Positions 1-15,351 are shown, counted from the first letter of the stretch. The stretch: DNA of 18,318 bases from Candidatus Heimdallarchaeota archaeon (GCA_048881705.1 JBHLSH010000076.1:1-18318); one strand, 5' to 3'. The notes: generated from the sequence alone by a model not told the origin. Made by a program: numbers and translations.

Positions 1-840
1 GTGTTTCTAGTCGTTGATGAGAATGCAAGACGGATTTTTATTTGGAAAGGGGAACAAGCACCAGTTCGTAGGAAATTCATCAGTGCCAAGGCCGCGCAAA
101 ACCTACGACAAGTGGAATACGGAATGGTTTATCGTATTGAATCACTGGATCCTGGGTTGGAGGGCCACGATTTCCTATCATTATTTGGGGAAAGTCCACC
201 GCAGCCAGAGGCAAAATCTCCTGTACCAGAAGAAACCTCTACCACGTCTCCTATTCCCGCCCCCATTGCGGCTCCCCATTCTGCTCCTTCGGTTCGACCG
301 AAACCTGCTCCATCATCCACCCCACGATCAGCAACAATTTCTCAACCGAAACCTGCTCCAATGGCTCGATCCAGTCCTGCTCCGACAACGCGTCCTAAAC
401 CTACGATTCAAACTGATGCAAAATCTGAGGTCAGAGCCAGCCCCGTTCCATCATCCCGTGCCAAGCCGACCCAAACCGAAGTCGAGGTAACACGGGTCGT
501 CAAGGCCGCACCTACCTCTATTGAGGATGTTACTGCTAAATTAAGAGACATTGAAGTACCTTCGAATATGGAAAGGGAGATTGTAATCATAGGGGACACC
601 GTCTATTCCGCAATAAAAGAGCACCTGAAACTCTTTGCGAAAGAGGTCGTTAAATTGGAGCCAATGGACGATCTACCCGCAGGGATTTTTCCTGCAGATC
701 AATACCAAGTTAGACTCTTCATGGAGAAAGGACGGGTACTTTTTATAGAAATGCTCAGACAAAAAACGCGATCAGAGCGTGACGAATTTATTGAAGACAT
801 GAGGGCTTCCCTCCAGGACCTTTCAAAGCTTGGACTCTGA
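1..840 (+). CDS. Gelsolin-like domain protein, Asgard 1DGelX-type (gelsolin domain + Pro/Ser/Thr linker + C-terminal X-like domain); probably 5'-truncated by the window edge
   Basis: N-terminus FLVVDENARRIFIWKGEQAPVRRKF...RIESLDPGLEGHDFLSLFG matches the gelsolin-repeat pattern (hhhD...hahW.G....E...F..hF). aa ~64-170 is low-complexity P/S/T/A/K. The C-terminal globular part (REIVIIGDTVY...YQVRLFMEKGRVLFIEML) resembles Asgard gelsolin-associated domains as I recall them. The ORF is open from base 1. Confidence 0.75.
   Translation: MFLVVDENARRIFIWKGEQAPVRRKFISAKAAQNLRQVEYGMVYRIESLDPGLEGHDFLSLFGESPPQPEAKSPVPEETSTTSPIPAPIAAPHSAPSVRPKPAPSSTPRSATISQPKPAPMARSSPAPTTRPKPTIQTDAKSEVRASPVPSSRAKPTQTEVEVTRVVKAAPTSIEDVTAKLRDIEVPSNMEREIVIIGDTVYSAIKEHLKLFAKEVVKLEPMDDLPAGIFPADQYQVRLFMEKGRVLFIEMLRQKTRSERDEFIEDMRASLQDLSKLGL
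297..360 (+). repeat. 16-nt exact direct repeat ACCGAAACCTGCTCCA (297-312 and 345-360) encoding PKPAP in the Pro-rich linker
   Basis: Read directly from the sequence; related RPKPT and RAKPT units follow in the protein. Confidence 0.9.
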
Positions 841-1396
841 TTACATTTTTTGGAAGTCTTTGATCGTGCAAGAAAACGAATATCTCCTTAAAATCTGTGC
901 TATCGGCTCAGGCAGCGTCGGTAAGACCTCGTTAATCCGCCGCTTTGCGGAAGGCAAGTTTGAAGCGAACTATCTTCCCACGCTCGGCGTGGACATCACT
1001 ACCAAGAAAATCCAGGTTGATAATAATTCAGTCAAGCTCATTCTCGTAGACACCGCGGGACAGGAGTTTTTTGGTAAGTTACGCCCCAGTTATTACCGTG
1101 GTGCTTCTGCTTGCCTCATCATGTTCGCCCTTGATGACAGAAAGACCTTTGATGCAATTCCTGATTGGCTCGCGGAATTCCGAAAGCATATTCCTGATCC
1201 TTCGATTCCTGTTGCTTTAGCTGGCAATAAAAAAGATCTTCCAGATCGTAAAATCTCCATGGAAGACGCTGTTGAGGTTGCAAAAACTCACGAAATGGTC
1301 TATTATGAAACGTCGGCAAAGGAAGGAGGGGAAGAGATTGACAAGATCTTTATCGGCCTAACACAGGCTATCTTGTCCAGAAAAAAGACTGGATGA
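830..1396 (+). CDS. Rab-like small GTPase (Ras superfamily); start either TTG 830 or in-frame GTG 866
   Basis: G1 GSGSVGKTS, G2 YLPTLGVDI, G3 DTAGQE, G4 NKKD, G5 ETSAK; Rab-type YYRGA motif; no C-terminal Cys. Confidence 0.93.
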   Translation: MDSDYIFWKSLIVQENEYLLKICAIGSGSVGKTSLIRRFAEGKFEANYLPTLGVDITTKKIQVDNNSVKLILVDTAGQEFFGKLRPSYYRGASACLIMFALDDRKTFDAIPDWLAEFRKHIPDPSIPVALAGNKKDLPDRKISMEDAVEVAKTHEMVYYETSAKEGGEEIDKIFIGLTQAILSRKKTG

Positions 1397-1417
1397 CCCT
1401 TAATAACGTATCTCAAA

Positions 1418-1456
1418 CCCGAATTTACACCCATAGCCCATCCATAGCCCCGAATT
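1418..1456 (+). repeat. Nested short direct repeats in the Rab/MglA intergenic region: CCCGAATT (1418-1425, 1449-1456) and CCATAGCCC (1431-1439, 1442-1450)
   Basis: Read directly; lies just upstream of the SD-like AGGAGA (1457-1462). Confidence 0.8.
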
Positions 1457-1474
1457 AGGAGAATAGATTTACTT

Positions 1475-2227
1475 ATGCAGGTAAAAACTGAGTTTGAAGT
1501 CGTTAAGAGAGACCATCAAGGTGTACCAACGGTCAAGATCGTTTTCTGGGGTCCTACTCTTGCAGGAAAGACGACAGCACTGACAATCACTAAGGTATTA
1601 AAAAGTCTTGAAGACCCAGAGAACGTTTATAAGTTCTTAAAGTTGGAGGATCCAACAGGACGAACCTTATTCTTTGACCAAGCGATCTTTGGACTTGGTC
1701 GAACCACTGCAGGGCTCCCCATCATAAAGTACCACCTCTTCACCGTTCCGGGACAAGAAAGACATTCAGGGCAACGTAAGGTTGTGTTACGAGGAGCGCA
1801 TGGTCTTGTTGTCGTCATCGACTCGGAAAAATCACGATGGGAAGAGAACAAGCATGCACTGAAAGAGATCAATGATTTAGCAGGAGACAAAATTTCCAAT
1901 GGAGTCCTCCCTTTTCAGCTGCTTTTAAACAAGATGGATTTACCGAGAGAGCAACGAATTTCTGCATTAGAAGTGGGAAAATTGCTAAGTGAATCAGGCG
2001 TGGCGGCAAATCTTCGTGACGCGGCAGCTAGAATGGTTGAAGTTTCTTGTCTTGAAGCTCGTGATGATCTAAAAGTTCTTCTCTCCACAGGAGATCGTAG
2101 CAAGATTGTTGATGCGGATGGTAAATTGAAAAAGGAATATAGACCAGCAAGTGTTTCTCGGGTAATCAAACCTGTTGAAAGCCTCATTCGGGATATCATT
2201 GTCTTAATGATGAAACAACAGGCTTAG
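1475..2227 (+). CDS. mglA: MglA-family small GTPase
   Basis: VKIVFWGPTLAGKTT (P-loop), RTLFFD (MglA intrinsic Arg-finger motif), LFTVPGQ (replaces DxxGQ, diagnostic for MglA), RKVVLRGAHGLVVVIDS, LNKMDLP (G4). SD AGGAGA upstream. Confidence 0.85.
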   Translation: MQVKTEFEVVKRDHQGVPTVKIVFWGPTLAGKTTALTITKVLKSLEDPENVYKFLKLEDPTGRTLFFDQAIFGLGRTTAGLPIIKYHLFTVPGQERHSGQRKVVLRGAHGLVVVIDSEKSRWEENKHALKEINDLAGDKISNGVLPFQLLLNKMDLPREQRISALEVGKLLSESGVAANLRDAAARMVEVSCLEARDDLKVLLSTGDRSKIVDADGKLKKEYRPASVSRVIKPVESLIRDIIVLMMKQQA

Positions 2228-2275
2228 CTGCGATTCGCTACAACTAATTCCCAGTTTGTTAGGTGAAAGCTGCTT

Positions 2276-2941
2276 TTGGCATTGGGAAAGTTTCCCATAA
2301 GAATTGCAATAACCAATCCGCAGATTGTACCTTTGGCATCCGAGACCTTAGGGAATGGAGTAATTGGAGTCTTTCCAACGGATACTTGCTATGGTCTGGG
2401 CTGCTGCGGTCTAAAGTGGAATAGTGATAATATATACCGTATATTCCGGCTTAAAGAGCGTCCGTTGGATTTACCTCTAAGTCTTCTGATTTCGAAAGAC
2501 ATGATCCCGAAATATATCGTTGCAACCCCCCAATTCTATTCTTTCTTACATGAAATTTGGCAACTCTCCGAACCGAGTCCCACTCTTATTTTAAAATGTC
2601 GAAAGGGAGCGGTTTCTCCCCTTCTCAATGCTAAAGATCCCCTCAAGATCGCTTTTCGTGTTCCATCTTATGAACTTCTTGTAAAAATCATCCAGAAGGC
2701 AGGATGTCCTATCATTGGAACCTCCGCAAATAAAACAGGCGCGCCAGTAAATTATAGCCTTGAAGGTGTGTACCAGGATTTTTTACCTAAAGACATCCCG
2801 TTAACGATTGATGCGGGACACCTTCCTCCGAACAAACCCTCGACCATCATAGATCTTAGTAATCTCACCAATCCCGTGGTGATTCGTCGTGGTGGATTTG
2901 ATCCTCAAAGGGTATTCGAGAGGCTCTCTGAAATTTATTAA
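2276..2941 (+). CDS. tsaC: L-threonylcarbamoyladenylate synthase, short TsaC/YrdC form (no Sua5 C-terminal domain)
   Basis: FPTDTCYGLG, KERP..LPL, GTSANKTG, PSTIID, RRG motifs; 221 aa; SD AGGTGA (2261-2266) 9 nt before the TTG start. Confidence 0.93.
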   Translation: MALGKFPIRIAITNPQIVPLASETLGNGVIGVFPTDTCYGLGCCGLKWNSDNIYRIFRLKERPLDLPLSLLISKDMIPKYIVATPQFYSFLHEIWQLSEPSPTLILKCRKGAVSPLLNAKDPLKIAFRVPSYELLVKIIQKAGCPIIGTSANKTGAPVNYSLEGVYQDFLPKDIPLTIDAGHLPPNKPSTIIDLSNLTNPVVIRRGGFDPQRVFERLSEIY

Positions 2942-2969
2942 AGATATTGCCAACCTCTTGCAGAGCCAT

Positions 2970-3036
2970 GAGTGATGAGGTGCAATTAATACCTGAAACT
3001 TATTAAGGATAATGATGAATGATATAGAGTGATGAG
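2970..3036 (+). repeat. 10-nt direct repeat GAGTGATGAG (2970-2979, 3027-3036); three RTGATGA motifs (2972-2978, 3012-3018, 3029-3035) and one CTGA (2993-2996)
   Basis: Read directly; function unresolved (C/D-box-like RNA or operator, see findings). Confidence 0.75.
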
Positions 3037-3038
3037 TT

Positions 3039-3050
3039 GTATATATTAAG
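3039..3050 (+). promoter_or_regulatory. Putative archaeal TATA box upstream of the 626-aa gene
   Basis: TATATATTAA about 30-40 nt upstream of the start; SD-like GGAGTGA at 3077-3083. Confidence 0.45.
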
Positions 3051-3079
3051 TAAATGGGATTCTTTGTAAATAACGCGGA

Positions 3080-4960
3080 GTGACTTTCTTGAAAAATGTG
3101 GAGAAAACTGTTTCTGCCCCGAATTTTAACGACATTCTAGTGATCCACCAAGGTGGTGGCTCGCCGCGCATCATATTCAGTTCTGGGGATGGGCAATTAA
3201 CTCAGAACTCGAAAATAAGTGCCCAAGTAACTCAGGTCCTCGATTTATTTTCACAGAGAATTGCAGAAGGAGAACAGGTACATTTTATCCGATTCTCTAA
3301 CCATCGTATGATTTTTTTATTCTCACAGGATAAGAGTCTTGTAGCAACTGTTCTTATTCCCATCGATCGCAGTGCACGTCAAATTATCCCCCTTATGAAC
3401 ATTATTTTACAAATGCTAACAGAATTTTTGTCCGGAGAGATTATTGATGCCCAAAATCGCCAACTAGACTGTTTTTTTCAGGTTTTTTCGGCTCCGCGGG
3501 ATGCTCATATCGTCATCCCTCGTACATCAGAAGGAATTCTAACCGCTCTCGTTATTCTAACCGCGGTTGCCCATGACCTGCAGTTTGGTATTCATCAAGT
3601 GGCCTCCAATATAGTATTCGTGGATCCTCAAGATCCTCGTGACGTGCTTGTAGCATCAGAACTGGCAAAAAAAAGCCGTATTATTTCGTTTCTACCACTT
3701 CCTAATGTGATGGAGAGTCCTAATGTACTTATTTTTGGATTAGAAGAACCACTTCGTCAATATTTCTCAGCTATATCAGGTGAATCCGCATATGATGCCG
3801 TAAGTCGAATCTTTGGTGAACAATCAAATGCTGCAAAGATGCATGCCTTCATTGCAAACGATGAGGCAAAAGAGATAGCCCAATCAATAACTGAACTTCC
3901 CAAATCTGAAGATGAATTCGTTAGAACGGATATACTCTTGACGACGGTGCTGCATCCAGGGCAGGACGTGTTGGTGACCTTATCATCCCCAGTGATGCAA
4001 AAAATGAGGGATTTGGCAAAGTCAGCTCCCCACGAAAAAACTGAAGTAACAGTTCCAGATCTTGAAGGTCTCACGGTCCAACCCTCTGAAACCGTGACTC
4101 AAAAACCCCCTAACACAGCTTCTACTCCAAAAACATTTTCAGATGCTTCCATCGAGCTGGCCGCCGAACCGGATGCAATTCCTACTGAGAATAATGTCTT
4201 GGCTACTCCCACGATAACTCCCATAACGCGTGCTACTTCGGTAGATCTCGATCCCGCAGTTATGGAGTTATTAGAAAAGGAGCGGTTTAGTGGTTTAGCG
4301 TACGAGTTTAAATCCCTTCCTGTAACTCTTGATACATCCCCTTCTAAAATTAATTTATCGAAGGCTCCCAACCTTCCCTTTGATAAAAATCAGGTTGTTA
4401 TTAGTACGTTTTCAGGAGATCAACGTTATTTTTCGATTCATCTTTATACGGCCATGGATCGCCTCCCCGCGCTAAAAGATTTGCTAGAAGATCTAACTGT
4501 TCGAGTGGGAGGAGAAGCTCGCTTGCAAGATGATTATGTTCTCATCGAAGGACCACTAGAAAAAGAAAGAGAAATTCTTCGTTCACTATTATGGTTAGGA
4601 ATTGTCGAGTACTTAACTCAGGTGCAGATGAATCTGCATCCCCTTCCGGAGATGTTCCAAATTCCCAAAAAAGGATCAATCCTAATAATTCCCCCTAGAC
4701 GAGAGTTTATCAGAGAAAAAATCCCGTCGAAATTTAAAACATTTGTCCGTGAAGTTGATCTTAGGAGACAATTCGAGCAGGAAGCCCTTTGGAGTCTAGC
4801 ATCCGCTCAGGATGAGATTTTATGGCGCTTACTCCAGCCACTAAAGAAAGGTGAAGGGGTAGTTTTTGTTTGTCGTGAGGACAATCAAGAAATAGAAGAA
4901 ATCGCGCTATTCTTACTATATGTGTCTGAAATTTGTGGAATAGGATTTTCTCGATGGTAG
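3080..4960 (+). CDS. Large multidomain hypothetical protein: N-terminal longin-like domain, alpha/beta core (possibly DENN-like), P/T/E-rich linker, unknown C-terminal alpha/beta region; true start may be TTG 3089
   Basis: 626-aa ORF. aa 17-118 shows beta-beta-alpha-beta-beta-beta-alpha longin-like periodicity (ILVIHQGG...RIIFS / ISAQVTQVLDLFSQRI / VHFIRFSNHRMIFLF...LVATVLI / RQIIPLMNIILQMLTEF). The CDS is secure; the domain calls are inference. Confidence 0.7.
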   Translation: MTFLKNVEKTVSAPNFNDILVIHQGGGSPRIIFSSGDGQLTQNSKISAQVTQVLDLFSQRIAEGEQVHFIRFSNHRMIFLFSQDKSLVATVLIPIDRSARQIIPLMNIILQMLTEFLSGEIIDAQNRQLDCFFQVFSAPRDAHIVIPRTSEGILTALVILTAVAHDLQFGIHQVASNIVFVDPQDPRDVLVASELAKKSRIISFLPLPNVMESPNVLIFGLEEPLRQYFSAISGESAYDAVSRIFGEQSNAAKMHAFIANDEAKEIAQSITELPKSEDEFVRTDILLTTVLHPGQDVLVTLSSPVMQKMRDLAKSAPHEKTEVTVPDLEGLTVQPSETVTQKPPNTASTPKTFSDASIELAAEPDAIPTENNVLATPTITPITRATSVDLDPAVMELLEKERFSGLAYEFKSLPVTLDTSPSKINLSKAPNLPFDKNQVVISTFSGDQRYFSIHLYTAMDRLPALKDLLEDLTVRVGGEARLQDDYVLIEGPLEKEREILRSLLWLGIVEYLTQVQMNLHPLPEMFQIPKKGSILIIPPRREFIREKIPSKFKTFVREVDLRRQFEQEALWSLASAQDEILWRLLQPLKKGEGVVFVCREDNQEIEEIALFLLYVSEICGIGFSRW

Positions 4961-4961
4961 A

Positions 4962-5225
4962 ATGTTCCGTACAAGCGTGCAAGAGACTAGAGAATCTTCT
5001 CCCAAAGACTGCTATTGTATCGGTCAGCTGAGGTCTCCCCGTTGCGATGATGCTGTTGCCGTCCGGAATAGTAGAAAAGCTGTGGCTGAAATCTTTGTGG
5101 AGAGTTCGGTCATTTCTTGCCCCGTAGGTATCCCTATATTTTTAAGGAAGAGGCCCGTCTTATTAACACACGGACGATATAAGGGATACTTACCCACAGA
5201 CACCATCCTGCAATCTGGTGACTAG
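4962..5225 (+). CDS. Possible 87-aa hypothetical protein (uncertain; overlaps a predicted RNA stem)
   Basis: ATG 1 nt after the upstream TAG and fills the gap, but has no recognisable family. Confidence 0.3.
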   Translation: MFRTSVQETRESSPKDCYCIGQLRSPRCDDAVAVRNSRKAVAEIFVESSVISCPVGIPIFLRKRPVLLTHGRYKGYLPTDTILQSGD

Positions 5226-5267
5226 GATACCCTTTATGGCAGCCATGATACATCGGAGAGTCCATTA

Positions 5268-6161
5268 ATGGCAAGAATTTGGGATATAGGCCGGCAAAAA
5301 TCTCGAATACGAGCTATTTCCCCTGTTATAGCGACTGTTTTGATGATAGGATTGGTTGTGGTCGCAGGCCTAGGAGTCGCATTGGTAATATTTGGAACAG
5401 TAGCTACGCCAACTCCAATAAACGTGGATGTTATTGGTATTTCCGAATTCGAATCAACTGACAATAATATACTTGTAGATAGATTTAGGGTGACTTTGCA
5501 GAATACAGAATCTTCTGTTGTATTGATACAGAGAGCTGATGCATTTGAAGTTCGCGATCGGAACTTCGGTATTATCCCAGGGTGGAGATTAAATTTAACT
5601 CAGGACCTAATTCCTCTAAGGCCATTGCAAATTCTCACCTTACCTATATCTTTAGATCGAAATATTCCCAGCGCGACCGAATTGATTCCAGAAAACGATA
5701 CTATCTATGTTCACGTCACAGTCTACCCAGAAGGGAGTAAATTCATCGCTCAAGAGGCCTTAATCTTTCAATCGGATCTTTTGGCGGTAGGAGATACGTT
5801 AGGCCCCGTTTATCTTTCAGCACAAACCCCATCAACGGAATTTGATACCAATGGCATTAATTTGCTGATGAATATTGTAAACAATGGAAGTACCAACCTA
5901 AATCTATTGTTAGAAATCACTTCGGATTCTCCTAGTCACATTTTTTTCACAATCGATAGTACAAATTCGAGTCAAGGCTCCCTTCCTGTCACACTACAGA
6001 AGTACCAAAGCACCTCGTTGTCAGGGGTAACCATCAAGGTCAATGCAGACCCTGCTCGCGCTGTTCCAAGTGCATTATATCAAATATTCATCACTCTAAA
6101 AGATCAGAACAGTCCCAAGTCCTGGGATATCGTGAGGATATATCTGACCTACCAGCCTTGA
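5268..6161 (+). CDS. Archaeal type IV pilin/archaellin-like protein with class III signal peptide
   Basis: Basic N-terminus ...KSRIRA followed by ISPVIATVLMIGLVVVAGLGVALVIFG (typical archaeal Pilin_N motif, predicted PibD/FlaK cleavage after A16); beta-rich exported region; SD GGAG 9 nt upstream. Confidence 0.85.
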   Translation: MARIWDIGRQKSRIRAISPVIATVLMIGLVVVAGLGVALVIFGTVATPTPINVDVIGISEFESTDNNILVDRFRVTLQNTESSVVLIQRADAFEVRDRNFGIIPGWRLNLTQDLIPLRPLQILTLPISLDRNIPSATELIPENDTIYVHVTVYPEGSKFIAQEALIFQSDLLAVGDTLGPVYLSAQTPSTEFDTNGINLLMNIVNNGSTNLNLLLEITSDSPSHIFFTIDSTNSSQGSLPVTLQKYQSTSLSGVTIKVNADPARAVPSALYQIFITLKDQNSPKSWDIVRIYLTYQP

Positions 6162-6169
6162 TAGAAGGG

Positions 6170-6210
6170 CTTATCTTTTCATAGACCTTTAATTTTATCT
6201 TTTATTTTTG
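6170..6210. terminator. Oligo-T-rich stretch between the convergent pilin and Dph6-family genes
   Basis: CTTATCTTTTCATAGACCTTTTAATTTTATCTTTTATTTTTG; oligo-T runs are typical archaeal terminators. Confidence 0.4.
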
Positions 6211-6879
6211 CTCAGTTTCCACTCTCAGAATTTCCAAATACCCCTCCTCCCGATATCGATCCCAATGAACGATGGAATCTTTGATCAAAATACGTGCTGG
6301 AAAGAACGGGGCATCCAATACAAAAGATTCGTAGGACCCTCCCTCTCCTGTAATGGCGATTTCGTTTCCATAAGCAGTGTTTTTCAATCTGTCAAGGATC
6401 TTAGAGGTTAATTTTGCCCCTAATAAATCCTTTTCCAGCCCCATACCCGCTATGGCGGTAAGAATAATATGGAAATTATGATCAAGCAATTCCAACATTA
6501 ATTGCTGAGGTGCCAATCGCCATAAGGGATTAAAGCATCGCATCCCAGCCCGGTGTGCAGAAAGATTGAACTTGTATCTCTGAAACTCTGATCGGATTCC
6601 CCCGGTAATCACTGCTTCTGCCTTTGCTTTAATCAAGGCATTCGTAAGGCCTTGAATCTCTTCTTCTACATCACAACTATCTATCCATGCGAATTGGTGA
6701 GGAATATCAAGCATTTCTGCGATCAGTTGAACATGTTGACAGTTAGGGAGGTGGAAGAGCTGACTCTCATCGCAGGACGATCTTATGGTTATGATCGAGG
6801 TCACTTCAAACTGGAGGAGCGCCAAACCTAGCGCAAAAATGGAATCCTTCCCTCCCGAGACGAGACAGGTAACCTGCAT
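6202..6879 (-). CDS. dph6: Diphthine--ammonia ligase family PP-loop ATP pyrophosphatase (Dph6/MJ0570-like); ORF track extends it to 6942
   Basis: MQVTCLVSGGKDS (PP-loop) from ATG 6879; LFHLPN, TGGIRSEFQ, FNPLW, GEGGSYESFVLDAPFF. Confidence 0.85.
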   Translation of the reverse strand: MQVTCLVSGGKDSIFALGLALLQFEVTSIITIRSSCDESQLFHLPNCQHVQLIAEMLDIPHQFAWIDSCDVEEEIQGLTNALIKAKAEAVITGGIRSEFQRYKFNLSAHRAGMRCFNPLWRLAPQQLMLELLDHNFHIILTAIAGMGLEKDLLGAKLTSKILDRLKNTAYGNEIAITGEGGSYESFVLDAPFFPARILIKDSIVHWDRYREEGYLEILRVETEQK

Positions 6880-7059
6880 AGGATCCGATGTGGATGCGAA
6901 GAAACTTATAATTTCTTCACAATTATTGTAGAATAGGCACATGATGCTTCCCCGTATCGCTAGGTCATATCACAAACCTCACATGTAAAGAAGGATGAAA
7001 ATTCTACAAATTTCTAGAGAAAGGAAACTTTTCTCCTATTCACTGCCATAAATCTAAGA

Positions 7060-7344
7060 ATGTGCATAAAAATGTCTTCTTCAGAAAATGCATTGCCCCA
7101 TAATACGGGATATCGGAATCGTTTTGGTTTTCGAGGGATTATTATCGCGATACTTGCAGCATTTGTAACAGCATTTGTACTCTTTATCTTTTCACCCTTA
7201 TTTCCCATAAATATTTTTGATGGTGTAATGGGTTATGTTTCCTTTGGGGGAATTATTATCCTTTCATATATATTCTATCTATTCCTACCCCAGGATAATG
7301 GAAGGGCACTTGAATCATCACAAGATGAAAATAAAGTACGCTAG
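7060..7344 (+). CDS. Small hypothetical membrane protein with two TM helices (start 7060 or 7072)
   Basis: Hydrophobic segments GIIIAILAAFVTAFVLFIFSPLF and VMGYVSFGGIIILSYIFYLFLP; fills the gap ahead of the acyltransferase. Confidence 0.7.
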   Translation: MCIKMSSSENALPHNTGYRNRFGFRGIIIAILAAFVTAFVLFIFSPLFPINIFDGVMGYVSFGGIIILSYIFYLFLPQDNGRALESSQDENKVR

Positions 7345-7356
7345 AGGTAATATCGA

Positions 7357-8091
7357 TTGGTTCACCTGAGTACTGGATATCGCTCCCAGCGAGCAACCGT
7401 ACATTCCTCACTTATTGCCGTCAGTGTCCTTTTGATTGGACCGTCATCAATCGGAAAAAGCTCGATTCTCGACCCTTTTGTCATCATTGGGTATCCAATA
7501 CGGACAAAAATGCAGAGAATCATGGCTCAAGATCAAAGAACCGAATCCCTAGAAGAACTATTTGATCAGGTCTCAACAGGAGCAACTATCGGAAGTAAAA
7601 ACCACATTAGGGCTTTTACCACGGTGTACGAGGATTCTTGTCTCGAGGATGGGGTTGAGACTGGCACGAATGTGACAATCAGGGAGGACTGCTACATCGG
7701 GGCCAACAGCATCATTGGCAGTGGCAGTATACTGGATAGTGGTGTTCACATTGGAGATAACGCCAGGATACAATCAAGTACATTCATACCTCCAAAGGTA
7801 AGGCTAGGTCGAAACGTCTTCTTAGGGCCGGCAGTACGATTTGCCAATGACAAATACCCCGTAAGTTCCCGTTTGATTGATACCGAAGTTGAAGACGGGG
7901 TTATCATAGGAATGGGAGCTTTGATCATGGCTGGAATAACTATTGGCCAAAATGCAGTTGTAGCTGCTGGTTCTATCGTCACAAAGAACGTTCCAGAGGC
8001 CCAGGTAGTGATGGGAGCCCCAGCACGACTTCTTATGACCCGAGAAGAATATGATCAAAAACAAGAAGAGTACAAATCATTAGGTGACTAG
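7357..8091 (+). CDS. Hexapeptide-repeat (left-handed beta-helix) acyltransferase, WbpD/WlbB-like sugar N-acetyltransferase family
   Basis: Repeated [LIV]G hexapeptides; VFLGPAVRFANDKYP and AVVAAGSIVTKNVP...VMGAPAR; SD GAGGT 8 nt before the TTG start. Confidence 0.85.
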   Translation: MVHLSTGYRSQRATVHSSLIAVSVLLIGPSSIGKSSILDPFVIIGYPIRTKMQRIMAQDQRTESLEELFDQVSTGATIGSKNHIRAFTTVYEDSCLEDGVETGTNVTIREDCYIGANSIIGSGSILDSGVHIGDNARIQSSTFIPPKVRLGRNVFLGPAVRFANDKYPVSSRLIDTEVEDGVIIGMGALIMAGITIGQNAVVAAGSIVTKNVPEAQVVMGAPARLLMTREEYDQKQEEYKSLGD

Positions 8092-8387
8092 ATAAAGGAG
8101 CATTTGCAGGGATTTTCTTCACATCTTGGACATTGGTCTGGATATTTTTCCCATGCAGCAGCCTCTAAATCAATATCAAGAAGATTAGAAACCGAACATA
8201 GCCAGGCAAACACATCTGCAACCTCTTCTCGAATTCCGTGGCGACTTCCTTCAAGATAAGCTTTCATTAATTCACCTATTTCGGTTTGTAGCCAGATCAA
8301 ACTTCGTTCAAGTCCACGTTTACGATCCCGCTCTAGATATAGGTCTGCCATTAATGTTTGAAACTGTTGAATCGTTTTCTGTACCAA
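8088..8387 (-). CDS. mazG: MazG-like NTP pyrophosphohydrolase (archaeal short form with C-terminal Cys cluster)
   Basis: WLQTEIGEL (ExxE) and EEVADVFAWL (ExxD); C-terminal CPRC...PCKC; SD AGGAG upstream of the TTG start. Confidence 0.88.
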   Translation of the reverse strand: MVQKTIQQFQTLMADLYLERDRKRGLERSLIWLQTEIGELMKAYLEGSRHGIREEVADVFAWLCSVSNLLDIDLEAAAWEKYPDQCPRCEENPCKCSFI

Positions 8388-8411
8388 TTGCCTGTCTCCT
8401 GTAAGATCTCT

Positions 8412-9434
8412 TCAAGAGTTGTTCAATGAAAGCGATGAATGATCTCCGATGTTGAGATCGGAGAGTCCGCCAACCATCTTAACTTCGTCTCCAATCACCG
8501 AGTCATGAATACTAACATTCATAAGCTTAGAGAACATCCCAACAATTGACGACGAAATAATTCCCCGGTTAACCTCTGTACCCTTTGCAATACTTACATA
8601 GGGGCCGATTATAGAATTTACGATTTGACAATCGGAATCAATGGCGACTGGAGGGATAATTATTGTATTGTCCAGTTTACTATCAATAGTCGGTTGCCGC
8701 TTTTTATTGAGAACGTATTCATGTGCGCCTAAGAGCGCCTCTTTCCTGCCGCAGTCGAACCACTGTCCTGAATCTACGGATCCAAGGGAAAATCCCTGAG
8801 TTATCATCATTTGAAGAGCATCTGTCAGTTGTAGTTCTCCTCCTGTACCTCTTTGATTCTGTTTGACAAGCTCCTGTAAGCATTCTTTCAATGCCAATGA
8901 ATTACGGATAAAATAAACTCCTGTTATGGCATTTGAAGAGCTAGGATTCTTTGGTTTTTCTTCCAATCGTTTTATGAGATTAGTACCTTCCTGCGTAACT
9001 GCAATCCCATAATTTTGAGGATCTGGTACCGATCTAACTGTAATCGCACCAACTAACTCTGGGTATTGATTGAAATCAGTAATCATTGCGTGAAAAGATT
9101 TTTCGTACAGACTATCGCCTAGAACGATGAGGACAGGGTCTCCATCTAAATAATCCCCAGCCAGATAAATCGCATGGCCCAACCCCCGCCTTTCATTTTG
9201 TTCGATGAATTTCACTGAACACACTGTATCGTAGTTGGTTTCTACATATGCCTTTAGTTTCTCTTTTTCATAACCAACTATGATAACAAAGTCATTGATA
9301 CCCGCATCTAGAACATCATCCATGATGTGTGATATGATCGGTTTGTTTGCCAACGTGAGAAGGGCCTTAGGTTTAGTATGTGTATGGGGACGTAACCGAG
9401 TTCCAGCTCCTGCCGCAGGAATAATACAACGCAT
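8412..9434 (-). CDS. Sugar-1-phosphate nucleotidyltransferase, long RmlA/GCD1-type with C-terminal LbH repeats (glucose-1-P thymidylyltransferase-like); ORF track start 9443
   Basis: IIPAAGAGTRLRPHTHTKPKALL, GLGHAI, LGD, EEKP, GELQLTDA, WFDCG. SD GGAGTGA favours ATG 9434. Confidence 0.9.
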   Translation of the reverse strand: MRCIIPAAGAGTRLRPHTHTKPKALLTLANKPIISHIMDDVLDAGINDFVIIVGYEKEKLKAYVETNYDTVCSVKFIEQNERRGLGHAIYLAGDYLDGDPVLIVLGDSLYEKSFHAMITDFNQYPELVGAITVRSVPDPQNYGIAVTQEGTNLIKRLEEKPKNPSSSNAITGVYFIRNSLALKECLQELVKQNQRGTGGELQLTDALQMMITQGFSLGSVDSGQWFDCGRKEALLGAHEYVLNKKRQPTIDSKLDNTIIIPPVAIDSDCQIVNSIIGPYVSIAKGTEVNRGIISSSIVGMFSKLMNVSIHDSVIGDEVKMVGGLSDLNIGDHSSLSLNNS

Positions 9435-9605
9435 CGTGTTCACTCCAATACCAGGCGGCCTTCGATTTCTATTGAATCAAGATCAGCCGCGGGTGTGATC
9501 CTTCCATCAAAACGTTTATTCAAAACTCTTTATTTTACCACTTCTTGATAATAGTTTCATCTAAGATTTTGTCTGTGGAATAAAAGGGCAATTTAGGTAA
9601 CAATT

Positions 9606-10640
9606 ATGGTTTCATTCGCTGTTTTAATCCTTGTACTCCTGGCTTTCGTGATTTCAGGCTTTCTATCTCGCCTTCTCCTCCCTTGGATTATAAAAGCCTC
9701 TTTAAACAGGGATATTACAACGATAGATGCCCACAAACCCGAAAAACCTATCATTGCTGAACCTGGAGGATTGGCTCCGTTGCTTGCAACAATTTTCACC
9801 ATTCTCATCTTAGTTTTCTCTTGGGAGTATATCACTCCAGAATTGGCTCCTAATCCTCAAGTATTTCAACCCCTCTTGGCGGGACTACTTAGTGTGGTCA
9901 TTGCAGGCCTCATTGGCTTTTTAGATGACGTATTTCGTATTAGCTGGCGGGCAAAGCTGTTGCTGGGGTTTTTACCTGCTTTTCCACTTATGGCCTTAGA
10001 AGTAGGAAAGAGTACAGTAGGTCTTGGCCCTCTTGGTGTTCTCGATCTTCGCTTTATCGTAGGTACCCTAAATCTCAACCTCTATAGCCTGATTATAATT
10101 CCGCTCGCTGTCAATTTTGCTTTCAATTCCTTCAATATGTTCGCAGGATTTAATGGATTAGAAACAGGAAACGGTACTATTTCGTTGTTTGCCATTCTGT
10201 TGCTATCACTTATTGTGGAAAATCCAATCGTAGCTTTATTTAGCTCCGCACTCTTGGGAGGATTCATTGTTATCTTATGGTTTAATTGGTATCCAGCCCG
10301 TACCTTGATAGGGGATACGGGGACATTAACTTTAGGCACAGGAATTATTGTGGCAATAATCATAGGGAATATGGATCGATTAGCTCTTGGTTTATTTGGA
10401 CTCCATTTCTTAAATTTCGTATTGTTCCTGGGTTACCTCTATACGCGACAGACAGAAAAAATTGCTTCGATCGATAATGATGGTAATATAGTGGCCCCCA
10501 GTCCCTTTACCGTATATTGGCTCCTCCCGTATTACTTGAAAAATATAGGAGAACGCAAAAATGTTTTGCTTCTCTTGTTAGCTCATACGATCATTGTTAG
10601 TATTGTTTTCCTTCTCTCTCTGCCAATCTACTCTTCATAA
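9606..10640 (+). CDS. aglH: UDP-GlcNAc:dolichyl-phosphate GlcNAc-1-phosphotransferase (AglH/Alg7/DPAGT1-like, glycosyltransferase family 4)
   Basis: Polytopic membrane protein; DAHKPEKP...EPGG, GFLDD, NSFNMFAGFNGLE, FNWYPAR..IGDTGT motifs. Confidence 0.88.
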   Translation: MVSFAVLILVLLAFVISGFLSRLLLPWIIKASLNRDITTIDAHKPEKPIIAEPGGLAPLLATIFTILILVFSWEYITPELAPNPQVFQPLLAGLLSVVIAGLIGFLDDVFRISWRAKLLLGFLPAFPLMALEVGKSTVGLGPLGVLDLRFIVGTLNLNLYSLIIIPLAVNFAFNSFNMFAGFNGLETGNGTISLFAILLLSLIVENPIVALFSSALLGGFIVILWFNWYPARTLIGDTGTLTLGTGIIVAIIIGNMDRLALGLFGLHFLNFVLFLGYLYTRQTEKIASIDNDGNIVAPSPFTVYWLLPYYLKNIGERKNVLLLLLAHTIIVSIVFLLSLPIYSS

Positions 10641-10676
10641 TTCCGTGCAACACTAGAAGAAACCTTTCATGAAAAT

Positions 10677-12296
10677 GTGAATATCTTGGCCGTCCAAACA
10701 ATATTATCGAAGGCTTTAACGGAGTTAGCACAAACGATCGTTCGTGAACCCAGTTTGGCCAAATCTCAAATGGAGGGATTGAAACGAAGTATTGCAAAAC
10801 GGTATGGTCTCAACCGTTTTGTCCGAAATTCCGAAATCATTGAACACGTGGTTGAATCCGATTTATTTAGTGAACAAGACAAAGAATATTTGATTGAATT
10901 CCTGAAAGTGCGTCGAGTTCGAACCCTTAGTGGCATAGCAGTGGTCGCAGTAATGACCAAACCCCTGCCCTGTCCAGGTAAGTGTATTTATTGCCCGGAT
11001 GTAGATGGAGCACCCAAAGCATATACAGGAAAAGAGCCTGCGGCCATGAGGGGAGCCCAAAATGATTTTCATCCAGAAAGGCAAGTTCTTACCCGTTTGT
11101 CTCAGTTAGAAAGCATTGGGCACCAGTTGGATAAGATTCATCTCGTAATAATGGGGGGAACGTTTCTAGCTACTTCTAAGAACTATCAGGAGTATTTTGT
11201 TAAAGGATGTTTGGATGGAATCACGAAAGTCCAATCGAAGTCCCTTGAGGAAGCGCAAAGATTCGCCGAAATAAGTAAACAGAGAAACGTGGGGATTACT
11301 ATTGAAACTCGTCCTGACTACTGTACCCCACGGCATGTCAATCGAATTCTTGAATTGGGTGGTACTTTTGTTGAGATCGGGGTTCAGACCTTGTCACAAA
11401 CTGTCTTGGATAAAGTTAAGCGGCATCATACGCTAGAAGATGTTGAAGAAGCTATAAGGAGTGCCCGGGATGGTGGATTGAAAGTGGCAGTCCATATGAT
11501 GCCTAATCTTTTTCATACTCCTGAAGACGATGTTACAATGTTTAAGCTACTATACAGTGATCCTCGCTTTGTCCCTGACGCGGTAAAAATTTATCCCACC
11601 TTGGTCCTTGAAAATACTTACCTACATAAGCTTTGGCAGACCCAGGAATACATTCCGTATGATACAGATCAGGTGGTGGATGTAATCGCTCAAATCAAAG
11701 CCATTACTCCTCCATTTGTACGTATCCAGCGTGTGCAACGTGATATCCCCGCCTACCTGATTCTTGATGGGGTTAGTCGGGGTAACCTTCGGGAAATGGC
11801 CCAATTTAAACTCAAACAAAACGACCAGCGCTGCTCGTGCATCAGATGTAGGGAGGTGGGGCATCAAACCAATCTTGGGAATCTTGACTGGATGGAGAAA
11901 GACAAATCTTTGCATACTTATGAATATCCAGCCTCAGAAGGAATCGAACATTTCATTACTTACGAAACCACGGATCACGAGACCCTATTTGGCTTTCTCC
12001 GCCTACGTGAGCCATCTATCGATGCCTTCAGACCAGAAATCCAAAGTATTTCCACCAGTATTATTCGAGAACTGCATGTCTACGGACGATTGGTAGGTCT
12101 CGGAAAATTTCCCCGTAATGCAACTGATTGGCAGCATCGAGGAATAGGGAAAAAATTGATTTCCAAAGCTGAAGAAATTTCCTTAGAGCGAGGATTTGAA
12201 AAAATCTTAGTCACTTCTGGCCTTGGAGTTCGAAATTATTACAGAAAGCTTGGATTTCATACTGATGGCGTTTATATGGGAAAAATGTTAAAATGA
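10677..12296 (+). CDS. elp3: Elongator protein 3, tRNA uridine(34) acetyltransferase (radical SAM + KAT domains)
   Basis: CPGKCIYC (CxxxCxxC), MGGTF, IETRPD, VEIGVQT, KIYPTLV, RIQRVQRDIP, CIRCRE, RELHVYG, QHRGIGK, GVRNYYRKLG. Confidence 0.96.
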   Translation: MNILAVQTILSKALTELAQTIVREPSLAKSQMEGLKRSIAKRYGLNRFVRNSEIIEHVVESDLFSEQDKEYLIEFLKVRRVRTLSGIAVVAVMTKPLPCPGKCIYCPDVDGAPKAYTGKEPAAMRGAQNDFHPERQVLTRLSQLESIGHQLDKIHLVIMGGTFLATSKNYQEYFVKGCLDGITKVQSKSLEEAQRFAEISKQRNVGITIETRPDYCTPRHVNRILELGGTFVEIGVQTLSQTVLDKVKRHHTLEDVEEAIRSARDGGLKVAVHMMPNLFHTPEDDVTMFKLLYSDPRFVPDAVKIYPTLVLENTYLHKLWQTQEYIPYDTDQVVDVIAQIKAITPPFVRIQRVQRDIPAYLILDGVSRGNLREMAQFKLKQNDQRCSCIRCREVGHQTNLGNLDWMEKDKSLHTYEYPASEGIEHFITYETTDHETLFGFLRLREPSIDAFRPEIQSISTSIIRELHVYGRLVGLGKFPRNATDWQHRGIGKKLISKAEEISLERGFEKILVTSGLGVRNYYRKLGFHTDGVYMGKMLK

Positions 12297-12397
12297 TGTA
12301 ATTTATCTTTTGTTGCTATCAAATTCACTTTTAGATCAGAAAGAAAAGACTTTTTCGCAGCAGACAATGTGGATAGAAGCTCGAATTCCTCTGTTAT

Positions 12398-13303
12398 TCA
12401 CTCTAACCGAGCAAGCATGTCCCATTCATGCTGTAAATCGGCCTGCAATGCCTCAATTTGTTGAGGAGACATGCTTTCAAACCGGCCCTGGAGTTTCAAA
12501 TATTCTGTAATCGGAACACGCTTTTCAGGATCACGATATTTGGCAAATTTTTTAGTAAAAGTTAGGGCCCCGTTTTCGATTTCATACATAGGAAAATATC
12601 CTGTTTTCACTGCTAATTGTCCCAGCCTTGGGGTCAAAGCAGGATCAGAGTACCAGCCTGTCGGGCAGGGCGCGTCAATAAGAATGAAGCGATATCCTGA
12701 CATGCTGTTAGCCTTACGAATTTTTGCGATTAGATCTCGAGGATATCCTGCTGTAGTGGTAGCAACATAAGGAACGTCATGGGCCGCTATTATCCGTGTG
12801 ATGCTCTTACGACTTTCTTTTTTACCTTTAGGTGTGGTTGTAGTTACCGCTCCACGAGGGGTAGCTCCAGATCTTTGGGCTCCAGTGTTTGAGTAAAATC
12901 CGTTATCATAACATACATGAATAATATCCTCGTTCCGCTCAGCCGCTCCAGACAGGGTCGCAAGCCCAATATCGTATGTACCCCCATCTCCACTCCATAC
13001 AACAACCGTAGCATTCTCACCTCGCATTTTTTTTGCACGAGCTATGCCAGAGGCAGCACTAGCATGAGCAGCAAACGCAATGTTTAGGGTGGGTACACCA
13101 TAGGTCACATGGGGATGATTACTTTGAACTACCGATGCACAGCAAGCGGGGATTACCACTATGGGGCGTTCAATGGCCGCTATGGCGTGTCGATAAGCGA
13201 TAGTGAGTCCGCACCCAGAACACGCGAAATTCCCTCGGAGGAGCACTCCCGGATCATTTTCTACCAATTGTTTGATATTAACAGCCATTTTCGTTTTCTC
13301 CAT
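12398..13303 (-). CDS. porB: 2-oxoacid:ferredoxin oxidoreductase beta subunit (POR/VOR family); likely start ATG 13288
   Basis: ACSGCG, PACC, GDGG...DIG (TPP-binding), YSNTGAQRS, PCPTGW. Confidence 0.93.
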   Translation of the reverse strand: MEKTKMAVNIKQLVENDPGVLLRGNFACSGCGLTIAYRHAIAAIERPIVVIPACCASVVQSNHPHVTYGVPTLNIAFAAHASAASGIARAKKMRGENATVVVWSGDGGTYDIGLATLSGAAERNEDIIHVCYDNGFYSNTGAQRSGATPRGAVTTTTPKGKKESRKSITRIIAAHDVPYVATTTAGYPRDLIAKIRKANSMSGYRFILIDAPCPTGWYSDPALTPRLGQLAVKTGYFPMYEIENGALTFTKKFAKYRDPEKRVPITEYLKLQGRFESMSPQQIEALQADLQHEWDMLARLE

Positions 13304-13313
13304 TGTTCATATG

Positions 13314-14462
13314 TTAGATGATACTTTCAACTTCGTTGGCGATATCTAGGTGAGTCACATTCATTCCACCAAGTCCCAAGATCTTTTGATGGAATTCTAG
13401 GTCTATTCTTTGAGCAAACAATTCTGCCTGGACTTCAATCGCCATCTGTCCAGCGTTACCATATGAAACAGCCCGATCAATCACCAGTAACTTCGGAATT
13501 TTTCTTAAATACCTAATTAGCTCTTTTTTAGGGAACGGACGAAATACTCGTGGACGAATGACTACAGCGTTAATTCCCTTCTCAGCTAGTAGGTCTAATG
13601 AATTTTCTGCTTCCTCACCCAGTGTTCCAAGGGCCATGATACCTATTTCCGCCTCTCCGATATCTCCTGTTATTTCAATCATTTCTCGTTGTAAGCGCCC
13701 AATTTTCATACCAAATTCCTCAAAGATTTCGGGAATGAGAAGTCTTGCATTTTCAAAACCCGTAATCAATGACATTCTCTGTTCCCATATTCCCTCGGCA
13801 TTTGTTAGGGAACCATGAGCAAATGGTGCATCAGGATCGAGCAGAACTAATGGCTTGAACGGAGGTAGAAAATTATCGACCTGTTTTTGAGTTGGCACTT
13901 CTACCTGTGCAGATGTATGGCTAAGAACAAATCCATCTAGGCATACCATGACAGGCATTGAAATTTTGGGGTGTTCACCAATTTTAAAGGCGCAGATGGT
14001 AAGATCCATCACTTCCTGATTGTTTTTGGCATACAATTGAATCCACCCAGCATCACGGAAGGCCATTGAGTCATGGTGATCGGGCCAAATATTCCACGGG
14101 TTTAATGATCGATTTACAACCGGCATGATTATAGGTACTCTTGTCATGCCAGCCCAAAAACACAATTCGCCCATATACAACAAACCATGAGAGCTAGTGG
14201 CAGTTACAGTCCGAACACCACCGAGAGATGCCCCAATACACGCACCCATGGCACTATGCTCGCTTTCGACCGCAATATATTCCGCATTCAGTTCTCCTGA
14301 CTCAACCATCTCCGAAAGAGATTCAACAATGGGTGTCTGTGGAGTGATCGGATAAGCTGCAATGACCTGAGGGCGGGAAAGTTTAATCGCTCTAGCTACG
14401 GCTTCCCCTCCCGTCATGAGCTCGGTTTTCATTGCATTGGGTTTTTCTAGTGATTGCACCAT
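13314..14462 (-). CDS. porA: 2-oxoacid:ferredoxin oxidoreductase alpha subunit
   Basis: AAYPITPQT, ESEHSAM, TATSSHGL, VNRS, DGFVLSH; SD AGGTGA upstream. Confidence 0.94.
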   Translation of the reverse strand: MVQSLEKPNAMKTELMTGGEAVARAIKLSRPQVIAAYPITPQTPIVESLSEMVESGELNAEYIAVESEHSAMGACIGASLGGVRTVTATSSHGLLYMGELCFWAGMTRVPIIMPVVNRSLNPWNIWPDHHDSMAFRDAGWIQLYAKNNQEVMDLTICAFKIGEHPKISMPVMVCLDGFVLSHTSAQVEVPTQKQVDNFLPPFKPLVLLDPDAPFAHGSLTNAEGIWEQRMSLITGFENARLLIPEIFEEFGMKIGRLQREMIEITGDIGEAEIGIMALGTLGEEAENSLDLLAEKGINAVVIRPRVFRPFPKKELIRYLRKIPKLLVIDRAVSYGNAGQMAIEVQAELFAQRIDLEFHQKILGLGGMNVTHLDIANEVESII

Positions 14463-14476
14463 TTTCCCTTCATCAC

Positions 14477-14755
14477 CTACTCTGGCTCCATCCAGAGTGC
14501 TTTCTCCTTAGGACATACTTCAACACAGATTCCGCATCCCTTACAATATTGATAATCCACGTAGGGATATTCATCTGGACCATCAACACGAATAGTATCT
14601 TCTGGGCAATTTAGCCAGCAAAAGTAGCATTTGGTGCAAGCTTCTTCTGCTAGAACAGGTTTTTCCGTTCGCCAATCCCCTGTGTTACCAGCGGAACCAA
14701 TTGTAGGTTTTCCCAATGGAAAAACTGGATCGGCCATTTCTTTTTCATGACTCAT
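14477..14755 (-). CDS. porD: 2-oxoacid:ferredoxin oxidoreductase delta subunit (2x[4Fe-4S])
   Basis: TGDWRTEKP; CTKCYFCWLNCP and CKGCGICVEVCP. Confidence 0.94.
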   Translation of the reverse strand: MSHEKEMADPVFPLGKPTIGSAGNTGDWRTEKPVLAEEACTKCYFCWLNCPEDTIRVDGPDEYPYVDYQYCKGCGICVEVCPKEKALWMEPE

Positions 14756-14784
14756 TTCTATAAAACCCGCTTGTTATTAAATTT

Positions 14785-15351
14785 TCAATTATAAAATCTA
14801 AACTTCTCATAAGCGTCTCTAATGGACTTAATATTAGCATCGGTCAACTTACCCTCGCCAAACTGATATTTAACAGCTTTAATAAGTGACTCCAAAGAAA
14901 CGATACCAGTGGCCTTCGCCCATGCTCCAAGCATAGTCGTACTAACCAAAACTGTTCCTGATCGAATCAATCCGCATTCTCGGGCAATCGTTACAGCATC
15001 TACCGTCCCCACTTTCAAATTCTCATGCGCTTTGAGGACGGGGGGGATTTCTTCTGAATTTACGATAATTATCGCTCCAGGTTTTAATTCATCAAAAGGT
15101 ATGTTATTGACCAGGGAAGGTTCGAAAACAATCCATGAATGGGCATTGGAGGCAATTACAGGGGCATGGGTTTTCACATGTTCATCTCCGATTCGGACAT
15201 CCGCAAAAATCGGTGCCCCTTTTCGTTCGGCCCCATACTTCGGGATGGCCTGAACGAACTTGCCATCAGTATGTCCAGCATAAGCTAACAGCTTTGCACC
15301 CATTACACCGCCTTGTCCACCTCTGCTAAGAATTCTGATCTCGGTGATCAT
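14785..15351 (-). CDS. porG: 2-oxoacid:ferredoxin oxidoreductase gamma subunit
   Basis: EIRILSRGGQGG, PKYGAERKGAP, VDAVTIA, TTMLGA; SD GGAGA upstream. Confidence 0.93.
   Translation of the reverse strand: MITEIRILSRGGQGGVMGAKLLAYAGHTDGKFVQAIPKYGAERKGAPIFADVRIGDEHVKTHAPVIASNAHSWIVFEPSLVNNIPFDELKPGAIIIVNSEEIPPVLKAHENLKVGTVDAVTIARECGLIRSGTVLVSTTMLGAWAKATGIVSLESLIKAVKYQFGEGKLTDANIKSIRDAYEKFRFYN

Follow-up and report, generated by a model that had tools for sequence, protein, structure and literature searches.

This study concerns the beginning of an 18,318-bp contig (C76) of Candidatus Heimdallarchaeota archaeon (GCA_048881705.1, JBHLSH010000076.1:1-18318), where a gelsolin gene, GelX, is followed by genes for two small GTPases. 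The contig in full is the window, that is, the whole stretch of DNA that was analysed, and it belongs to an assembly of 3.96 Mb in 155 contigs with 41% GC. Named homologues of the window proteins are all found in Heimdall-group Asgard metagenome-assembled genomes, labelled Hodarchaeales, Hodarchaeota or Heimdallarchaeota. Hodarchaeales is the order placed closest to eukaryotes. Positions 1-4960 carry five open reading frames (ORFs) on the plus strand, encoding GelX, a Rab-like GTPase, an MglA-like GTPase, a YrdC/TsaC-family protein and a large protein of 626 amino acids (aa); the only other ORFs within this run are short antisense ones. The GelX and Rab-like genes overlap by 11 nucleotides (nt) or lie 25 nt apart, depending on the Rab start, and the following gaps are 78 nt (Rab-MglA), 48 nt (MglA-TsaC) and 138 nt (TsaC-626). 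An earlier sequence-only reading had described five co-oriented genes with these gaps, coding for a gelsolin-domain protein and two small GTPases of different families, and both the coordinates and the identities given below agree with it. The features are as follows.

1-840, plus strand: 1DGelX gelsolin (GelX), the last 279 codons of a gene that starts at C117:6746; codons 1-64 encode the last part of the gelsolin domain, and a disordered, Pro-rich linker comes next.
511-837, plus strand: domain X of GelX, delimited in an AlphaFold2 (AF2) model, with the conserved motif set ERE..IIG...PEGIF..Y.PR.
830-1396, plus strand: Rab-like small GTPase, 188 aa from TTG at 830, with an alternative GTG start at 866; Pfam Ras, E 2.8e-46.
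1475-2227, plus strand: MglA-like GTPase, 250 aa, with the P-loop GPTLAGKTT, RTLFFD with the intrinsic Arg, TVPGQ and a C-terminal extension of ~50 aa.
2276-2941, plus strand: YrdC/TsaC-family protein, 221 aa; Sua5/YciO/YrdC domain, E 1.2e-27.
2993-3006, plus strand: B recognition element (BRE)/TATA-like motif CTGAAACTTATTAA, upstream of the 626-aa gene and conserved in most genus loci examined.
3080-4960, plus strand: Hodarchaeales-specific protein of 626 aa; the AF2 model has domains at residues 13-97 (3116-3370), 114-313 (3419-4018) and, as two α/β domains, 390-626 (4247-4957), with a linker at 295-389.

The 5′ end of GelX is cut by the contig border. The last 77 nt of contig C117 are identical to the start of C76 (window 1-77 = C117:6857-6933), so the two contigs are adjacent, GelX is complete in the genome and the truncation is an assembly artefact. 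The joined gene (C117:6746-6933 plus C76:78-840) has 316 codons and is equal in length to a 90%-identical orthologue (L001:4809-5756). By sequence, the fragment in the window gave weak matches to Asgard gelsolins (2DGel3, E 0.003), and the GelX of a related genome, G078, reached the Pfam Gelsolin family above threshold (23 bits, cut-off 21 bits). The AF2 model was made for the full-length 90%-identical orthologue from alignment A2, which comprises 31 sequences drawn from about 12 families. Residues 7-100 of this model form a gelsolin domain, with a predicted local distance difference test score (pLDDT) of about 94, which superposes on Thor ProGel (7c2f_D) with Z 15.9 and a root-mean-square deviation (rmsd) of 1.2 Å over 88 residues. 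A Pro-rich, disordered linker of about 100 residues follows, and the C-terminal domain X (residues 211-314) is predicted as a helix, a five-stranded antiparallel sheet and a second helix, with pLDDT of about 85-92. Domain X was detected in 354 of the 400 Asgard genomes, and its sequence conservation is phylum-wide.

Thor 1DGelX and L. ossiferum B35_GelX have the same architecture, in which a Pro-rich linker joins a single gelsolin domain to domain X (PMC7444086; bioRxiv 10.1101/2025.11.30.690169). Thor 1DGelX severs, nucleates and caps rabbit actin in vitro in a Ca-independent manner (PMC7444086), and by analogy GelX is assigned to the actin-filament-severing type of gelsolin. The proteins differ in the account given of domain X: a coiled coil was predicted in the published work, where the structure could not be solved (PMC7444086), whereas the present model, with its helix, five-stranded sheet and helix, disagrees with that prediction and predicts that domain X is not a coiled coil.

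Roadblock/LC7 proteins are the classical platform or GTPase-activating protein (GAP) partner of MglA- and Rag-type GTPases. For the neighbourhood of GelX, 25 GelX loci outside Hodarchaeales were scanned with hidden Markov models (HMMs) built from the Roadblock and Ras-family genes of this genome, with the following counts.

Other Asgard families (phylum level), 20 loci: Roadblock next on the same strand in 16, a Ras/Rab-like direct neighbour in 0, neither in 4 (one with a weak Ras-like match).
Other families of the class, 5 loci: Roadblock next on the same strand in 2, a Ras/Rab-like direct neighbour in 3, neither in 0.

A same-strand Roadblock/LC7 gene thus follows GelX in 18 of the 25 loci, in 8 families and with a gap of at most about 180 nt, and GelX lies beside a Roadblock or a Rab-like gene in 21 of the 25, from about 10 families. 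The three Ras/Rab-like neighbours (two convergent, one co-oriented and downstream) fall into the C25/C76 Rab clade. When the Rab and MglA queries were used alone, none was found adjacent to GelX in 20 loci outside the order. All 18 GelX-linked Roadblocks have the same best match in this genome, C75:16563-17066 (30-49% identity), so they constitute one orthologous family. With about 10 Roadblock genes and at least 49 (about 50) Ras-family genes among roughly 3,700, the chance expectation for an adjacent gene is roughly 0.3% and 1.3%, respectively, for loci that are phylogenetically related to one another. The published studies of 1DGelX/GelX and of Asgard GTPases that we examined do not mention linkage to Roadblock or GTPase genes.

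Both GTPases behind GelX carry sequence features of their families. The best PDB relatives of the Rab-like protein are all Rabs (Rab22A, E 1e-35), and the DTAGQE motif is present. Its C-terminus is a basic tail without Cys, and no prenylation motif was found there; a C-terminus of this kind has been reported for Asgard Rab-like proteins. Orthologues in more divergent members of the genus are 69-79% identical, and that in the closest relative (L001) is 97% identical; the corresponding values for the MglA-like protein are 80-85% and 98%. The MglA-like protein matches M. xanthus MglA with E 2.4e-19, and the MglA hallmarks, T/PxxGQ instead of DxxGQ and a switch I with an intrinsic Arg finger, are present as TVPGQ and RTLFFD, invariant in the 12 aligned sequences. 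At the position of MglA Gly21, the P-loop has Thr or Ser in all aligned Asgard MglA-like paralogues, including a canonical Roadblock-flanked one on contig C72, so the P-loop Thr is not special to this gene. The likeness to the MglA-MglB switch of Myxococcus and Thermus (PDB 6h5b, 3t1q) lies in the T-x-x-G-Q motif, the intrinsic Arg and the predicted N-terminal fold of the 626-aa protein, whose model superposes on MglB with middling Z; the differences are the lack of an adjacent stand-alone mglB, the Thr at the Gly21 site and the extra C-terminal segment of ~50 aa. No stand-alone Roadblock (PF03259) gene was found beside the MglA-like gene in the window, and ten are present elsewhere in the genome; the one candidate for such a partner in the window is the roadblock-like domain predicted for the 626-aa protein.

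The canonical arrangement is found in the same genome at C72:4591-6775 (L022), where a Roadblock, an MglA/Rag-like GTPase and a further Roadblock make a Ragulator-like trio; the second Roadblock also matches the MAPKK1_Int/LAMTOR3 family. A second MglA-like gene on contig C1 was considered as a paralogous cluster and rejected, its neighbours being the unrelated urocanase, PIG-L and TGT genes.

The fourth gene of the run probably is a passenger. It exceeds the Pfam cut-off for PF01300 by a wide margin (97 bits, cut-off 25) and stays below that of the NCBIfam equivalog TIGR00057 (103 bits, cut-off 123). TsaC occupies this position in the window's GTDB genus only and is absent from it in family f2. 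The genome has a second YrdC gene on contig C87.

In the genus, the order GelX-Rab-MglA-TsaC-626 is found in 17 of the 18 informative loci. This order alone says little, because all the loci are from one GTDB genus, within which the entire 17 kb are syntenic. Beyond the genus the parts separate. GelX and the Rab-like gene are adjacent in all Hodarchaeales lineages examined and in G397, a genome of another Asgard family. In G078, from the sister family f2, the genes run Roadblock, GelX, Rab, MglA, a 157-aa gene, a subtilase, a 626-aa homologue and a pilin-like gene, with no TsaC and with different flanks. In G079, also of family f2, GelX-Rab is kept, the next genes are convergent, and the 626-aa gene lies after S12 and a Csl4-like gene. 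In G397, the X-domain protein and the Rab-like gene are convergent with a 66%-identical MglA orthologue, and a 626-aa homologue was not detected. MglA therefore joins the GelX-Rab pair in some lineages only. The sequence-only reading had presented the five genes as one module and called for a synteny search across Asgard genomes; the association of GelX with a Rab or Roadblock gene proved widely conserved, whereas the five genes did not hold together as a unit, since TsaC is restricted to the genus and the 626-aa gene is apart from MglA in G079. In another Hodarchaeales genome, G065 (CP070760), the TsaC gene that precedes the 626-aa gene is broken into two short ORFs (L008, 7081-7714) and the locus lacks the Rab gene, which indicates a local deletion or rearrangement.

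We propose that a small-GTPase switch has GelX as its effector or partner. In its GTP-bound state the Rab-like protein, joined in Hodarchaeales by the MglA-like protein, would set where or when GelX severs or caps actin, and this control would plausibly act through the conserved C-terminal domain X. The gene beside GelX is a Roadblock in most other Asgard archaea, and GTPase genes take that place in Hodarchaeales and some other Heimdall-class families. Contacts between these proteins, and a direction of control that runs from the GTPase to GelX, are what we infer from the conserved neighbourhood, and we put the probability that the coupling of GelX and GTPase is functional at about one half. 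A broader version is offered tentatively: an ancestral Asgard module, in which a GTPase switch steers an actin-severing gelsolin, may have been rewired in Hodarchaeales by placing Rab-like and MglA-like genes behind GelX and by adding a new roadblock-containing regulator of 626 aa.

Several observations weigh against a functional coupling. Its support consists of gene context and predicted folds, and the fold matches of domain X itself are weak only, to Cache/PAS-like domains (Z 5.3 and 3.9). All 20 sampled contig loci come from one GTDB genus, in which the syntenic 17 kb include the housekeeping genes Dph6, Elp3, a nucleotidyl transferase and 2-oxoacid:ferredoxin oxidoreductase (POR). The MglA gene of G079 is apart from GelX-Rab, on another contig, and in G065, which has the 626-aa gene, neither GelX nor the MglA orthologue was found, in a genome whose completeness by marker genes is 70%. 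In four of the sampled GelX loci no Roadblock and no clear GTPase gene adjoins GelX, and the GelX-type Roadblock of this genome is detached, on C75, where its gene runs into the beginning of a 240-aa ORF. The GTPase genes of Loki MK-D1 do not, as a rule, share operons with the genes of their regulators (PMC10933270). Taken together, these points would fit genes that are neighbours without a shared function, their order having been inherited in a shallow, GTPase-rich clade while GelX acts on actin independently. With at least 49 Ras-family genes among roughly 3,700, a single GelX-Rab adjacency could be luck; the broken cluster of G079, the trio missing from G065 and the little operon organisation of GTPases with regulators (PMC10933270) are likewise what this explanation predicts. 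It does not readily account for a Roadblock or Rab-like gene beside GelX in 21 of 25 loci outside the order, against a chance expectation of about 0.3% for a Roadblock neighbour. The pairing also survives changes of partner type, orientation and flanking genes, as in families f1, f2 and f32, and its recurrence in about 12 GTDB families goes beyond what inherited gene order would give. We regard the absence of any shared function as unlikely and retain the coupling of GelX to a GTPase switch as the preferred reading.

Within the run, the short gaps, the Shine-Dalgarno (SD)-like sites, the TATA-free spacers and a motif before the 626-aa gene suggest that GelX-Rab-MglA(-TsaC) forms one unit and that the 626-aa gene is promoted separately. 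AGGAG lies about 14 nt upstream of the MglA-like start and AGGTGA lies upstream of TsaC; no TATA-like element was seen in the Rab-MglA and MglA-TsaC spacers. The 138-nt TsaC-626 spacer contains the promoter-like motif CTGAAACYTWWTAA at 2993-3006. A near copy is at 2928-2941, overlapping the TsaC stop, and the two copies of the CTGAAAYTTATTAA motif are 65 nt apart. In other genus loci the motif stands directly after the TsaC stop, suggesting that a short segment was duplicated in this lineage and L001. GelX, Rab and MglA, here with TsaC, are probably one transcription unit, and the 626-aa gene, judged by its spacer, is a separate and putatively separately promoted gene that is loosely linked to the trio.

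The 626-aa protein has no Pfam, NCBIfam or PDB-sequence matches, and a PDB profile search was empty up to E 10. An HMM search of 1.84 billion representative proteins returned 31 clusters only. Among the 400 Asgard genomes, the family is present in 21 of 21 genomes of the window's GTDB genus and in 2 of 2 of the sister family (about 29% identity), and it was undetected elsewhere. The mean pLDDT of the AF2 model is 75.6, and four parts can be described. Residues 13-97 are predicted as a roadblock/LC7-type domain, which matches M. xanthus MglB with Z 6.6-6.7 and rmsd 3.8-3.9 Å over 75 residues, and MglB, LAMTOR4/5 and dynein LC7 together with Z 6.3-6.7 over ~75 residues, in a region of the model with pLDDT 59-73. 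By sequence, there is no PF03259 match in this part, and hhalign against Roadblock alignments gave non-significant E values of 0.059 and 0.13. Residues 114-313 form a Rossmann-like α/β domain with helices that aligns with DHH domains (RecJ 6lrd_A, Z 7.1, rmsd 4.5 Å, 173 residues; 6mtz_B, Z 7.7). After the disordered linker (295-389), residues 389-516 are DHHA1-like (Z 6.2-6.6, rmsd 3.2-3.3 Å, about 116 residues), and residues 531-626 resemble the N-terminal part of P-loop kinases (T4 PNK, Z 8.2, rmsd 2.6 Å, 91 residues) without having a P-loop. A search of the ESM Atlas gave a best score of 0.84, which is chance level.

The model matches two-domain DHH/DHHA1 proteins in Foldseek with E 7e-5 and probability 0.99, and in the VIA searches with Z up to 8.5. 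Because these Z values lie in the range of common arrangements, the folds are descriptions and not statements of homology. Single DHH and DHHA1 domains superpose with Z 6.2-7.7 and rmsd 3.2-4.7 Å. Comparison of residues 114-513 with DHH/DHHA1 phosphoesterases and their inactive relative Cdc45 (RecJ, GAN, NrnA) gave Z 8.0-8.5 over about 280 residues for GAN and RecJ-Cdc45, with an rmsd near 20 Å because the two halves sit differently. Unlike these enzymes, the 626-aa protein lacks the motifs DxD, D, DHH and GGGH; mapped by secondary-structure order and not by superposition, RTSEG stands at the place of DxD and PLP at that of DHH. Four true DHH genes are present in the genome. Sequence homology between the core and RecJ/GAN was rejected, the hhalign comparison of alignment A1 with the RecJ/GAN alignment (A4) giving a probability of 0.2%. 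In about half of the genus genomes, a 46%-identical paralogue of the N-terminal ~300 residues is fused to an ABC-transporter ATPase, which shows that these residues are an independent unit and weakens the two-domain DHH+DHHA1 reading, since the paralogue has the DHH-like part without the DHHA1-like part. This paralogue was seen at L055:8009-9766 (G065), L049, L051, L052, P0070 and P0088, and none turned up in the genome of the window; in every case an ORF of 485-690 aa lies immediately upstream of it, and in L055 this ORF has hydrophobic stretches at its two ends. A mixed alignment hinted that the C-terminal half of the 626-aa protein might be a degenerate ABC ATPase, and a clean profile-profile test (probability 0.05%) led us to reject this.

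The sequence-only reading had seen in the large protein a longin/DENN-like regulator. A roadblock/longin-superfold N-terminus is present in the model; the DENN part of the idea found no support. Pfam searches with DENN, uDENN and dDENN gave no match up to E 10 for the protein, its segments or 33 relatives, and among the matches listed in Foldseek and two VIA fold searches with this long model there was no DENN chain, the best being MglB/LC7 roadblocks and DHH-type folds (Z 7-8.5 for the α/β part). The DENN identity was set aside as unsupported, and we consider it highly improbable that the protein is a DENN-type guanine-nucleotide exchange factor (GEF). Eukaryotic longin-DENN modules (DENND1B, FLCN-FNIP, C9orf72-SMCR8) resemble it in the order of its predicted parts, longin/roadblock-like, α/β and helical; its gene moreover lies next to small-GTPase genes. 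They differ in that its predicted β-sheet domain resembles DHH domains.

This bears on a full cascade, in which a 626-aa longin-DENN-type GEF activates the Rab-like or MglA-like protein, which in turn controls GelX. The ordered roadblock/longin-like, α/β and helical parts within the N-terminal ~300 residues would suit such a GEF, as would the independent evolution of this unit in the ABC-fused paralogue, the listing by Foldseek of tri-longin GEF subunits (Fuzzy, MON1A-CCZ1; E 0.01-0.02 over about 172 columns) and the location of the gene near MglA in the genus and in G078. Against these stand, besides the DENN results, the conserved promoter-like motif that the gene has of its own, its separation from MglA in G079 and its absence from detection in G397, G309, G398 and G399, all of which have an MglA orthologue. 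We consider the cascade very unlikely.

The MglB-like roadblock domain would make the 626-aa protein a possible partner of the MglA-like GTPase. It might then act as an MglB-type GAP or platform, with the rest of the protein a catalytically dead DHH-like scaffold as in Cdc45, and the pair would work alongside GelX-Rab. The roadblock fold of the model, the window without a stand-alone Roadblock in a genome that has the canonical Roadblock-MglA-Roadblock set on C72, and the DHH-like topology with RTSEG and PLP in place of the catalytic motifs are consistent with this arrangement. So is the distribution, as the family is found in Hodarchaeales only and the MglA subtype in every such genome except G065 and G072. 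The roadblock call, however, comes from a region of modest pLDDT with middling Z and with hhalign E values of 0.06-0.13, the DHH likeness has no sequence support, and the linkage is broken in G079, as is the co-occurrence in the four genomes that have the MglA subtype and no 626-aa protein. An MglB-type role is doubtful on this balance, and we also think it improbable that the 626-aa protein is part of the GelX-GTPase module, for which GelX and the adjacent GTPases remain the preferred components.

The regulation of the Asgard actin cytoskeleton is an open question. In eukaryotes, Rho, Rac and Arf pathways act on gelsolin, cofilin and WAVE. The arrangement proposed here would resemble eukaryotic GTPase control of actin regulators in pairing a small GTPase with an actin-severing or capping protein; it differs in that the GTPases are Rab-like and MglA-like instead of Rho-family. 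A study of crawling motility pointed to gelsolins and profilins as likely regulators and reported that an Arf GTPase co-precipitates with Lokiactin, with no matched GTPase-effector pair (PMC13716822). Gene layout rarely reveals which regulator fits which Asgard GTPase (PMC10933270), and the GelX neighbourhood departs from this rule, singling out particular small proteins: GelX or its domain X, the GelX-type Roadblock, and the Rab-like and MglA-like GTPases encoded next to GelX. If the coupling is real, GTPase control of actin remodelling would be older than eukaryogenesis. The component families were already known. New here are the contig join that completes GelX, the predicted α/β fold of domain X, the division of the 626-aa protein into domains, together with its ABC-fused paralogue, the promoter-like motif of its gene and the breakpoints in G079, G065 and G397. 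The 626-aa family is an uncharacterised Hodarchaeales-specific protein that deserves a structure of its own.

The following gene is a frequent neighbour of the 626-aa gene.

5268-6161, plus strand: 297-aa protein with an archaeal type IV pilin-like signal/N-terminus.

The two are paired in 11 genus loci and in G078, and convergently in G079, so that this pairing is wider than that of the 626-aa gene with MglA. Bacterial MglA controls type IV pilus polarity. In the 307-nt spacer between the two genes (4961-5267), an 87-aa ORF (4962-5225) was considered as a gene and set aside; it has no family match and a low-complexity, odd composition, and is probably non-coding.

Further downstream, positions 6202-15351 of the window hold housekeeping genes: Dph6 (diphthamide synthase), a hexapeptide transferase, the nucleotidyl transferase, a GT4 glycosyltransferase, Elp3 and the POR subunits. 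Positions 16101-16871 encode a 256-aa protein whose only match is an N-terminal zinc ribbon (Pfam Zn_Ribbon_1, E 2.6e-8). On C117, upstream of the GelX start, lie a second Rab-like gene (C117:4146-4736), Trm56, a SLOG-family gene and a gene for a long TrmB/coiled-coil protein, as in L001:1-4800. With Trm56 and TsaC included, the neighbourhood is one with many genes for the modification of tRNA and translation factors.

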